Positions 42,366-45,300 of a stretch of 64,000 bases of DNA are shown here, piece by piece; the first letter of the stretch is position 1; the number at the start of each line of letters is the position of its first letter. Position numbers and translations under genes: made by a program. The notes beneath the pieces are model-generated. The model was not told where the DNA came from. It ran no database searches and worked only from the letters and a program-made list of their open reading frames with translations. The stretch is from an uncultured Actinomycetota bacterium. Its GTDB lineage: Bacteria; Actinomycetota; Actinomycetes; Streptomycetales; Streptomycetaceae. Location of the stretch: assembly GCA_963711935.1 (NCBI GenBank), contig CAVQGD010000034.1, positions 72,334 to 136,333 of the forward strand. Direction: 5' to 3'.

Positions 42366-45300
42366 TCAGGTGTCGGTCCAGTTGAGGGTGTGGAGATAGC
42401 TGGGAGCCGGATTGTCTTCGGCCACCGGGTCAGGCATCTCAAGGTCAGGGAAGCCCATGTCAGGGAAGCCCATGTCAGGGAGGCCGCTGTCCAAGGCCAT
42501 GGGGGCGGCCTCCGCCGGGACTGGTTCCGGGTGAGAGGCGGGGTGGCCCAGCACCCCGGCCCGGGTCAGCCGGGCGAAAGCACTGGGGTCCGCCGGGCCG
42601 GCAGGCGGCAGCGTGAAGGATTCCAGCGTCCCCCCGGCGGACACCCGCCACCACGAGCCCGTCCCCCCGGCCACCGGAACCTGGCCGACCGTCACACTGC
42701 CATCGTCCGCCCTCCGCAGGTCCCAGCCGACCGGCGGTTCCCCGCCGTCCCGTGTCGCCAGCCGCGCCTCGCCCCTCTCGTCGTAGTGCACCTGGAGCTC
42801 GGTACCCGGCAGGTCGACTCTCCAGCCCACGGCCTTTCCCCCGAGGACCGTGAGCGTGGTACCCGTACCGAAGACGACATGGAGAAACTGATGAGCCGAT
42901 CCTGTTTCGATGTGCCAGTTCCTGATGTTCTGCGACGTCAGGAAGGCCGCAATGCGCATCCGCCACCGGAAACTCGGAGTCGGTTTTTCCACCTGGCCTG
43001 GCAGTTTATTCCTGTCAAGACCCAGAATTCTCGCCACATCGTGCTGTGTGGTTATGCGGTGGGCCTTCTTTATGGTTTCCAGGGAGTTCTCCCAGGCCCC
43101 CAGGGCCGGTTCGCCCGGGTTGTGGGACCATGCGGAGAGCTGCTGCGAGAGCTGCTGTGCCGGGTCCGGCGCACTGCCGGCCGCCCGCCGGTAGCCGCGC
43201 ACCACCCGCTGGGCGTCGAGTGTCCACTCCCCGTCGCCATGGCGCACCCGCAGGCCACCCTCGTCGGCGCTGACGACCTCGCCGGGGAGACCGGTCTCCC
43301 CGTCGGCGCCCACCAGCCGCGGAGGGCCCTGCGGAGTGTCGAACCGTAGCCGGTGCTCGGTTCCGGGCAGGGCCACCATCCAGTGCGTGAAGGTGCCGTC
43401 GGGCTGGAAGTGAGCGATGCTCCGGCCCCGCCGCACCGCGACGGCGAACCCGTCGCTGCCGGTGGGCACCAGCCGCCAGTCGGCCTCCTCCGCCGGGATC
43501 TTCCGCAGCACACTCAACCGCGGCAGCCAGACGCCCCTGCCGCCTCCCTCGAGTAGCCTCCGCAGTTGCTCAGGGCTGGTCAGCAGGCGTCGTGCCAGCT
43601 CCGTCTTGTTGTTGTCGTTCAGCCGGGTCAGGAGCTCACGGGCAATCTGCTTGGTCCGGTCTCTGCCGGGCACGTCCGCCGCGGCAGGTGGAGCGGGCCG
43701 GTCGGGTGCCGACGGCCCGGCGGGTGCCGACGGCCGGGCACGCTTGCGGGACGGACCGGGCGTCCGGCTGCCTGACCCGGTGTCCGACGGCCGGGGGGAA
43801 GGACGGGCAGGACCGACGCCGAGAGGTGCCCCCGGATGGGCCCCAGGAGAGGTAAGGGGGGCGGGGTGGTCCAGCACCCCGGCCCGGGTCAGCCGGGCGA
43901 AAGCACCGGGGTCCGCCGGGCCGGCAGGCGGCAGCGTGAAGGATTCCAGCGTCCCCCCGGCGGACATCCGCCACCACGGGCCCGTCCCCCCGGCCACCGG
44001 AACCTGGCCGACCGTCACACTGCCATCCTCCCCGCTCCGCAGGTCCCAGCCGACCGGCGGTTCCCCGCCGTCCCGTGTCGCCAGCCGCGCCTCGCCCCTC
44101 TCGTCGTAGTGCACCTGGAGCTCGGTACCCGGCAGGTCAACCCTCCAGCCCCCGACCTTCCCTCCATGGAACGTGAGCGTGGTACCCGTACCGAAGACAA
44201 CACGGAAGGAACGCACATCCTGTCCTGTTTCGATGCGCCAGTTCCTGATGTCCTGCGACGTCAGGAAGGCCGCAATGCGCACCCTCCATTGAAGACCCAG
44301 AGTCTGTTTTTTCACCTGGGCTGCCAGGTTTGTACTGTCAAGACCCAGAATTCTCGCCACATCGTGCCGTGTGGTTATGCGGTGGGCCTTCTTTATGGTT
44401 TCCAGGGAGTTCCTCCAGTCCCCCAGGGCCGGTTCGCCCGGGTCGCGGGACCATGCGGAGAGCTGCTGCGAGAGCTGCTGTGCCGGGTCCGGCGCACTGC
44501 CGGCCGCCCGCCGGTAGCCGCGCACCACCCGCTGGGCGTCGAGTGTCCACTCCCCGTCGCCATGGCGCACCCGCAGGCCACCCCCGTCGGCGCTGACGAC
44601 CTCGCCGGGGAGACCGCTCTCCCCGTCGGCGCCCACCAGCCGCGGAAGGCTCTGCGGAGTGTCGAACCGCAGCCGGTGCCCGGTTCCGGGCAGCGCCATC
44701 ACCCAGTGTGAGAAGGTGCCGTCGGGCCGGAAATGAGCGGTGCTCCCACCCTGCCGCACCGCGACGGCGAACCCCTCGTCACCTGTGGGCACCAGCCGCC
44801 AGTCGGCCTCCACCTCTGCGATCTTCCGCAGCACACTCAACCGCGGCAGCCAGACCTTCTCGTCGCCACCTCCCTTGAGCAACGTCCGCAGTTGCTCAAC
44901 GCTGATCAGCAGGCGCCGCGCCAGCTCCGCCTTGTTGTTGTCGTTCTTGTTGTTGTCGTTCAGCCGGGTCAGGAGCTCATGGGTGCTCTCCTTGGTCCGG
45001 TCCCTGCCGGGCACGTCTGCCGCGGCAGGTGGAGCGGGCCGGCCGGGTGCCGACGACCCGGCGGGTACCGGTGGCCCGGCCCCCTCACCGGCCATGCCGG
45101 GAGTCCGGCTGCCCGAGTCGGCGTCCGGTGCCCCGGCCGGGGCCAGCCGGCTGGGCACCCTGCCCCCCGCCCGGCCGACAGACGGAGGGACAAAGGGAGT
45201 TCGCGTACCCCTCCGTACCGGGTCCAGCAGCCGCCGGGCGACCTCCGCCGCCGCACCCTGCCCGCGCCCGGCGGTCCCGTGCCCGGCGTTCCCGCCACCC

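Follow-up and report, generated by a model that had tools for sequence, protein, structure and literature searches.

Giant Proteins with Arrays of Predicted Helix-Turn-Helix Modules, Variable on Helix 3, in an Uncultured Streptomycetaceae Bacterium

The Giant Gene

The DNA considered here, called the window in what follows, is a stretch of 64,000 nucleotides from an uncultured actinomycetotal bacterium of the family Streptomycetaceae (GenBank assembly GCA_963711935.1, contig CAVQGD010000034.1, positions 72,334 to 136,333 of the forward strand); the assembly is a draft of 44 contigs, 79% complete, in which the contig of the window is designated C34. On its minus strand the window carries a giant gene encoding repeated modules, two of which are close twins; an earlier sequence-only reading had proposed that the differences between these twins concentrate in putative recognition helices, so that a conserved scaffold would carry diversified specificity positions. 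The structure, the variation, and the possible meaning of these modules, both in the window and in the paralogs encoded elsewhere in the same genome, are the focus of the present work.

The gene is distributed over two reading frames. Its N-terminal part lies in frame A (47950 to 51093, minus strand), where a frame plot of the GC content at third codon positions (GC3) indicates coding from 51093 down to about 48100; this part is recognised by the Pfam family PF25547, WXG100_2 (E 2.6e-20), has a single strongly hydrophobic segment in its hydropathy profile (amino acids 147-168), and includes a spacer of about 750 amino acids composed of 19% Gly, 15% Pro, 14% Thr, and 13% Ala. The repeats lie in frame B, which is open from stop to stop between 42366 and 47945 on the same strand, is coding by the same plot from about 48075 down to 42366 (GC3 0.8-0.96), and gives, from a GTG at 47837, the protein P0001 of 1823 amino acids. 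Along frame B there follow one another a conserved beta-rich domain, tandem repeats of 33/34 amino acids, three modules comprising six units, each a helix-turn-helix (HTH) plus a beta domain (all six are found by a hidden Markov model (HMM) of the unit), an acidic tail rich in Pro, Asp, Met, and Phe, and the C-terminal motif APSYLHTLNWTDT (42369 to 42407, minus strand). This motif, with the consensus PSYL(H/D)T(I/L/V)(N/T)W(A/S)D, ends the window copy and also four intact paralogs, on contigs C26, C27, C28, and C1; it possibly serves as a signal for sorting or for secretion. The 33/34-residue repeats, which separate the beta-rich domain at the N-terminus of P0001 from the first module, are encoded by two pairs of 99-102-nt tandem repeats (46630 to 47001) and contain SEWELWLGSPARSVNQPG or DWDPAWLDSPARSV; a similar motif, W..DP.(W/L)LDSP, recurs in protein P0012 of Streptomyces sp. 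NPDC006476.

The two frames meet at a break (47940 to 47962, minus strand) located where a (VPLPG)n 15-nt tandem ends; it puts a TAG into frame B at 47946-47948. When aligned with the intact paralogs on C41 and C26, the window shows CTAGGGT in place of their CTCCCGGGY or TTCCCGGGT. The WXG100_2 domain is thus in a different frame from the repeats in the window gene, whereas four intact paralogs, on C26, C27, C28, and C1, have both in the same open reading frame (ORF); since that ORF runs in these paralogs from the N-terminal domain through the spacer and the repeats to the tail, the window gene is to be regarded as one giant gene with a break. The break near 47950 may be an assembly artefact, because the rpoB gene of the same assembly is also split over several frames; outside the window, at C23:30385-33924, rpoB occupies at least six overlapping frames, rpoC is broken too, and leuS on C25 seems split, while ileS and valS are whole. 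Local indel errors are clearly present in this draft, and therefore frame breaks in this genome are, short of resequencing, no proof of pseudogenes.

Anatomy of the Modules

Self-alignment resolves three modules, all on the minus strand: R1 (45300 to 46466), a first module of "type B" which is 39% identical to R3; R2 (43860 to 45026), the upstream twin, 83% identical to R3 in protein sequence by tblastn; and R3 (42528 to 43685), the downstream twin, which corresponds to residues 1385-1770 of P0001 and is the sequence that was modelled. The twins, modules 2 and 3 of the three, fall within 42528-45026, and the spacing of the repeats in the DNA is 1323-1341 nt. Each module consists in turn of two homologous units, as the HMM built from the second half also matches the first; the window gene therefore has six of them. 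The earlier picture of two repeats of about 1.25 kb has accordingly to be amended: the twins are real, but a third, divergent module precedes them, each module is internally duplicated, and the period is longer than had been estimated.

The positions of the variable patches and all four pairs of peptides quoted for them were confirmed by translation, and codon alignment gives the counterpart of each R3 patch in R2 (minus strand throughout). In unit a, the helix 3 cap, helix 3, and a Gly loop are encoded at 43533 to 43580 in R3 (TSPEQLRRLLEGGGRG; model helix 38-45, entropy peak 37-40) and at 44856 to 44906 in R2 (ISVEQLRTLLKGGGDEK). In unit b, the turn, helix 3, and the loop between helices 3 and 4 are encoded at 42966 to 43019 in R3 (LDRNKLPGQVEKPTPSFR; model helix 225-233, entropy peak 223-234) and at 44289 to 44342 in R2 (LDSTNLAAQVKKQTLGLQ). 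The remaining two patches belong to the beta domain of unit b: the beta1-beta2 hairpin loop, GSAHQFLH in R3 (42879 to 42902, between strands 257-261 and 268-272) and GQDVRSFR in R2 (44202 to 44225), and the beta3-beta4 turn, TVLGGKAVG in R3 (42825 to 42851, between strands 276-281 and 284-291) and TFHGGKVGG in R2 (44148 to 44174). On the model, two of the patches quoted in the earlier reading thus correspond to helix 3 of the two HTH domains with the loops that follow, and the other two to this hairpin and this turn.

Fold of the Unit

An AlphaFold2 model of R3, computed from an alignment of 30 paralogous modules, has a pLDDT of 83 and a pTM of 0.76. In the model the unit is made of four helices (8-21, 27-33, 38-45, and 53-61) with ten strands after them, a pattern that returns at residues 195-360; the variable segments fall on helix 3 of either unit (38-45 and 225-233) with its loops and, in the second beta domain, on a hairpin (262-269) and a turn (279-287). 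Exhaustive structural comparison of residues 4-65 with VIA brings HTH regulators of the XRE family to the top, with Z values which are modest but with matches that cover the whole domain: 5woq (Z 6.0 over 61 amino acids, rmsd 3.6), ClgR (3f51, Z 5.6), and C.AhdI (1y7y, Z 5.0, rmsd 2.5), besides Aca, HigA2, and HipB. As modelled, the helical domain is therefore an HTH of the XRE/Cro type, superposable on solved XRE domains.

Sequence comparisons give fainter echoes of the same fold. The Pfam model HTH_26 matches R1 only, barely above its cut-off (22.6 bits against 22); the Cro-like YdaS model of Pfam matches four of the 30 modules at E 0.001-0.01, and none of the 30 passes the cut-off alone. 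A profile compared with the sequences of the PDB gave no significant match, the 434 repressor appearing at E 0.74 in the register of the HTH. In the paralogs there are echoes resembling NUMOD and the CI repressor, in particular a NUMOD-like match of the I-HmuI kind in a paralog on C26 (33 bits, cut-off 27), and a third subtype of the unit retains the canonical pattern LGxSxxxLxxxxxGKxxxS.

The beta domain, when folded alone, reaches a pLDDT of 82. Structural comparison of this domain on its own, again with VIA, gave as best match the VWD domains of mucins, at a Z of 5.5 and an rmsd of 5.3 which do not allow interpretation; Foldseek, run with the whole module against the PDB, returned only beta-propellers (TM 0.11-0.16, rmsd 16-20), judged spurious; in the ESM Atlas the best TM of a shape search was 0.33, and a search by language-model features gave no usable match. 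For the unit as a whole, HTH plus ten-stranded beta domain, no family was found in the releases of Pfam and NCBIfam searched.

Variation between the Twins

The codon alignment of R2 and R3 contains 319 identical codons, 30 with synonymous differences only, 99 with nonsynonymous differences, and 13 gapped. When the structured core is defined as model residues 8-375, and the hot segments as residues 36-51, 223-240, 262-269, and 279-287, nonsynonymous differences affect 28 of the 51 codons in the four hot segments against 36 of the 317 in the rest of the core (Fisher p 2e-11); clustering is also found by a dispersion test free of any choice of regions (10-codon bins, p 0.0015), and the longest identical runs between the twins, 137 and 104 nt, may be compared with an expected 55 and a 99.9th percentile of 115. 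Over the core, the Nei-Gojobori ratio of nonsynonymous to synonymous divergence (dN/dS) is 0.97. The three outcomes named beforehand as speaking against the idea, namely, substitutions evenly spread, mostly synonymous, or confined to disordered linkers, were all absent. The emphasis on recognition helices was nevertheless too narrow: the variation does cluster on the helix-3 regions, but of the 64 nonsynonymous differences in the core only 10 are in helix 3 proper, 18 being in the trailing loops and the two beta turns and 36 scattered.

It had also been noticed that the patches are richer in AT than the identical runs, and this holds, their GC content in sliding windows being 0.48-0.63 against 0.75-0.82. 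Low GC is, however, not a property of the patches only: over 18 modules, hot codons have a GC3 of 0.67, as compared with 0.87-0.91 for the two beta domains and the first HTH, but the second HTH domain is GC-poor throughout, identical parts included (GC3 0.75 in its codons outside the hot segments). The mismatches between the twins in the hot patches are 13 CT, 14 AG, 6 CG, 5 GT, 5 AC, and 3 AT.

Variation across the Family and Selection

The C-terminal modules of the family, here named type A (18 modules, R2 and R3 included), vary at the same places. Entropy peaks at residues 37-40, 42-43, and 46 in unit a and at 223-234 and 262-265 in unit b; within helix 3 the buried residues L41, L44, L45, L228, and V232 hardly vary, while exposed positions accommodate up to 12 different residues, and 96 of the 97 units with a complete helix-3 segment have one distinct from all others. 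Nucleotide identity among type-A modules is 87-94% in the scaffold and 58-88% in the patches. The nearest neighbours of a patch differ from those of the scaffold around it (helix 3 of R2 unit a is 88% identical to L015 and 73% to R3), which suggests mosaic exchange.

Selection was estimated on the 16 type-A modules other than R2 and R3, so that the twins do not enter the result. Nonsynonymous diversity (piN) is 0.332 in the hot segments, a value reached by none of 5000 random sets of blocks of the same size, whose maximum is 0.304; its ratio to synonymous diversity (piS) is 1.79, against a mean of 1.21 for random blocks (P 0.034), piS itself being 0.185 in hot segments and 0.122 elsewhere, and the Nei-Gojobori piN/piS of the family about 1.2. 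Estimated by maximum likelihood under the GY94+F3X4 model on a fixed tree, the ratio omega of nonsynonymous to synonymous rates is 3.10 for the hot segments against 0.60 for the remaining codons, and each value differs significantly from 1 (twice the difference in log likelihood, 47.8 and 38.5), while that of the whole module is 0.83. The conclusion that amino-acid changes concentrate on the exposed face of helix 3 and on nearby loops, under positive selection, is well supported as regards scaffold and diversified positions. This part of the sequence-only reading is thereby borne out and extended from two repeats to the family, by the placement of the patches in the model, by the conservation of the buried residues of helix 3, and by the contrast in omega within modules that had played no part in it.

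The Family in the Genome and Beyond

The module has 79 tblastn matches in its own genome, in about 20 loci and within very long frames, and HMM searches raise the number of units to about 115-123. The first 290 amino acids of the gene recur in 24 copies (64-92% identity), and PF25547 has 32 matches; four paralogs combine N-terminus, units, and C-terminal motif in single ORFs of 2565-3944 amino acids. Type VII secretion machinery is present in the genome, as EccB (PF05108), the component searched for, was found twice (E 1.4e-86 and 1.4e-64).

Outside this genome the family is extremely rare. The module was not found in 24 genomes of the genus nor in 16 of the order, and a scan of 185,579 species representatives with degenerate patterns gave 50 pattern matches, none of which was confirmed. 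Among 1.84 billion cluster representatives there were 13 matches, mostly from this genome, with a few scraps from ENA or JGI and two spurious ones, and a word-indexed profile search of 5.8 billion proteins gave seven, apparently from this genome or from one ENA contig of 6.2 kb. Two of the 13 are partial proteins of Streptomyces sp. NPDC006476 with the same order of domains as the window family; their occurrence in an independent genome indicates that the family is real and no artefact of one assembly. The literature on Streptomyces, WXG100 proteins, and polymorphic toxins yielded no account of HTH arrays. What is known, then, is the HTH superfamily and the secretion-linked head family; what is not described in the libraries and literature searched is the unit itself, the fact that giant proteins carry it repeatedly, and the hypervariability of its helix 3 under positive selection.

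A Variable Recognition Array

It is proposed, as an evenly balanced judgement, that the twin repeats are modules of a strain-restricted family of exported or surface-displayed recognition arrays under diversifying selection. Each protein would present 5-12 units behind a WXG100-like head, as found at the front of type VII secretion substrates, a hydrophobic segment which possibly anchors it in the membrane, and the Gly/Pro/Thr-rich spacer, and would end with the acidic tail and the peptide PSYLxTxNWxD. The putative variable surface of a unit would be composed of the exposed face of helix 3 and the loop between helices 3 and 4, to which a module's second unit would add the tips of the two beta hairpins, whereas the hydrophobic core and the remaining scaffold would stay similar from copy to copy. 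The family would have grown by duplication of units and of genes; concerted evolution, or a recent burst, may hold the scaffold at about 87-94% nucleotide identity while positive selection replaces amino acids on the variable surface, with the result that, through duplication and diversification, the genome would hold about 100 versions of one putative binding surface. The partners with which the arrays might interact would be changeable ones, for instance phages, microbial competitors, or a host; that the ligand is a protein or a component of the cell envelope is a tentative assignment, that it is a nucleic acid a doubtful one.

Several points weigh against this proposal. The omega of 0.83 for the whole module means that overall constraint is weak; gene conversion among paralogs violates the assumption of a single tree made in all the omega estimates, and the hot segments, which are short, have limits set partly from the entropy of the family itself. 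Frame breaks occur in about half of the paralogs, the window copy included, and if they are real many copies are pseudogenes. The beta domain is without a clear solved relative, and the closeness in space of the four hot segments, which the model places along the chain, is presumed; likewise, we infer export, anchoring, binding, and the reason for diversification from sequence and from a predicted structure.

Alternative Explanations

Among the alternatives, the one that survives best is that the units are sequence-specific DNA-binding HTH modules and the array a delivered or internal effector in which helix 3 sets the target, reprogrammable in the manner of the transcription activator-like effectors (TALEs) or of zinc fingers; it is considered rather unlikely. 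The XRE-type fold of the helical domain speaks for it, and the hypervariable unit-a residues S37, P38, E39, Q40, R42, R43, and E46 align with T27, Q28, Q29, S30, E32, Q33, and N36 of the 434 repressor, which we take to be its operator-contact positions; yet this fold has no large free face other than the exposed side of helix 3, which would vary for any ligand, and the tips of two beta hairpins vary too, an indication that the surface is composite. Mean net charge is +5.2 and +2.9 for the two HTH domains, which are basic, and -2 for the slightly acidic beta domains, and in the three most variable classes of units 46-56% of the exposed helix-3 positions are R, K, H, N, Q, S, or T; the same positions, however, hold 10-15% Asp/Glu and 8-22% Pro/Gly. 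The NUMOD-like and CI-repressor-like echoes in the paralogs speak for a DNA-binding role, but the overall support from Pfam is weak, with only four of 30 modules matching the Cro-like model. As for the architecture, units of about 190 amino acids joined by variable linkers lack the fixed spacing of TALEs, and XRE domains normally bind palindromes as dimers; a location outside the cell is suggested by the WXG100 N-terminus together with the Pro/Thr-rich spacer, although other type VII substrates are nucleases which reach the nucleic acid of a target cell. That giant proteins exported by type VII secretion, with 5-12 HTH modules, should be true sequence-reading binders of DNA or RNA, a bacterial HTH counterpart of the TALE and zinc-finger arrays, is unlikely.

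A second explanation denies the diversity any adaptive meaning: the repeats would be decaying or selfish, under relaxed constraint, and the mosaic would arise purely from patchy gene conversion among about 100 units. An overall omega of 0.83, a piN/piS of about 1.2, and a dN/dS of 0.97 between the twins speak for it, many copies have frame breaks, the hot patches have a lower GC3 (0.67) and a higher piS (0.185 against 0.122), and the nearest neighbours of patch and scaffold differ. This explanation is nevertheless improbable: an omega of 3.1 in the hot segments is significantly above 1, beyond neutral drift, and that of the scaffold significantly below it; the buried positions stay the same in about 100 units, the alignment of the modules yields a confident predicted fold, four paralogs keep ORFs of 2565-3944 amino acids open, and the frame breaks are perhaps assembly errors, since rpoB is broken as well. 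Such an omega beside invariant core residues is not explained by neutral decay.

The repeats could also be a product of assembly, through chimeric joining or collapse of near-identical sequences, as might be feared from a draft in 44 contigs, 79% complete, with contigs C8, C32, and C44 ending inside repeats and a fragmented rpoB; but the pattern of hot and cold segments is found in the 16 other modules, inside long contigs, and again in the independent genome NPDC006476, the differences are codon-coherent, and the frame stays open for 5.5 kb, which makes an artefact very improbable. Least credible is targeted mutagenesis by a diversity-generating retroelement or similar device, which would account for short, AT-richer, hypervariable patches on a constant scaffold in a genome that does encode reverse transcriptases, but which was rejected because the mismatches are of all types without adenine specificity and no RVT_1 match lies on C34, the reverse transcriptase genes being on C27 (161.9-168.8 kb) and C28 (12 kb), with none beside the HTH-array loci, and the variation being spread over about 100 dispersed paralogous units with no template/variable pair.

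Flanking Genes and Other Loci

The giant gene is flanked by direct repeats of 300 nt, 91% identical (41876-42175 and 51732-52031), each holding a small plus-strand gene whose product starts with MTWEVERVPGG; this gene has seven copies in the genome, unlinked to the other giant genes. Pfam and NCBIfam revealed no toxin domain at the C-terminus of P0001 (the NCBIfam scan gave nothing), although a novel toxin might escape such searches, and no gene of an immunity type was recognised downstream, where the ORFs 41542-42174 and 41660-42346 are without family. Directly upstream of the giant gene, an ORF of 96 amino acids (51374-51664, minus strand) shows an XRE-like HTH pattern; the genome contains no second copy and, being unique to this locus, the ORF is no family-wide partner of the giant genes.

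Further away, at 39479-41284, there is a WhiJ-type cluster typical of Streptomyces, with an HTH_31+DUF5753 regulator (39694-40692), an overlapping small ORF resembling DUF397, and a divergent HATPase_c_2 gene of the anti-sigma type (40865-41284); kinship of the unit with this regulator was considered, but profile comparison gave a probability of 0.15%, and the two are unrelated. On the other side, a single ORF (52351-54234) joins an ABC_tran ATPase (E 1e-30), SpoIIE/PP2C (E 8e-55), and HATPase_c_2, a fusion which is doubtful given the frame errors of the assembly.

Elsewhere in the genome, C27:161925-168771 has four RVT_1 matches within 7 kb and adjoins a frame of 4788 amino acids (C27:173219-187582) with a weak match to the beta portion of the unit; further weak matches of this kind are found in very long frames (4646, 9888, 3065, and 1125 amino acids) at C25:342113-405551, with a WXG100_2 head at 405413. 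One EccB gene, at C25 424296-425603, is about 20 kb from this cluster of long frames.

Relation to Known Systems

With the XRE/Cro-C1 regulators (434 repressor, ClgR, C.AhdI, HigA/HipB) the unit shares the register of helix 2, turn, and helix 3, an Ala in helix 2, the Gly and Leu of the turn and, in one subtype, a GK..S after helix 3. It differs in having four helices only, fused to a ten-stranded beta domain, with a DNA-binding role that is putative, by analogy; in being repeated 5-12 times per giant polypeptide behind a WXG100-type domain; and in its hypervariable helix 3, while the Pfam models barely score. EspR of M. tuberculosis also ties an XRE-type HTH to type VII secretion, and was reportedly first described as secreted by ESX-1, a claim said to have been disputed later; EspR, however, is a single small dimeric regulator, with no array, no hypervariability, and no WXG100 fusion.

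In organisation the family resembles the mycobacterial PE/PPE multigene families (PE_PGRS, PPE_MPTR), which likewise have many paralogs in one lineage, a short and highly conserved N-terminus linked to type VII secretion, and a repetitive, fast-evolving C-terminal part, with repeats that break assemblies and signs of gene conversion. In the present family, however, the N-terminus is PF25547, the repeats are folded units of 190 amino acids, HTH plus beta domain, rather than short Gly-rich ones, and the host is Streptomyces; membership of PE/PPE was rejected, as Pfam gives WXG100_2 alone in the N-terminal part, and the likeness is functional. Polymorphic toxins of Actinomycetota and Bacillota led by WXG100 or LXG domains also have a WXG100-like head on a long modular protein and paralogs that share the head while the bodies differ, whereas here the body is an HTH array with a conserved C-terminal peptide, and no toxin family is recognised by Pfam or NCBIfam.

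With TALE and C2H2 zinc-finger arrays, to which the sequence-only reading had likened the repeats, the resemblance is one of concept only, that is, tandem copies of a scaffold with variation on few exposed positions: the unit has about 190 amino acids against 34 or 28, another fold, no fixed repeat phase, and no type III signal. The proteins are not TALE effectors, their units of about 190 amino acids having 10-15 variable positions and an HTH plus beta fold.

Significance

What the family adds is a known DNA-binding fold that has been repeated, placed behind a head of the secretion type, and diversified on its recognition face with an omega of about 3. As a practical warning, repeats of this kind break assemblies, and the present draft has frame errors. 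Were the ligand a nucleic acid, the arrays would constitute a novel class of modular binders in which swaps of helices could in principle change the target and, if they truly bind DNA or RNA, their targets would be genomes of phages, competitors, or a host; were it a protein or a component of the envelope, the HTH fold would have been re-used as a variable recognition surface. The proposed recognition arrays would give Streptomyces a variable surface family comparable to PE/PPE, useful for studies of microbial conflict and of the concerted evolution of repeats.

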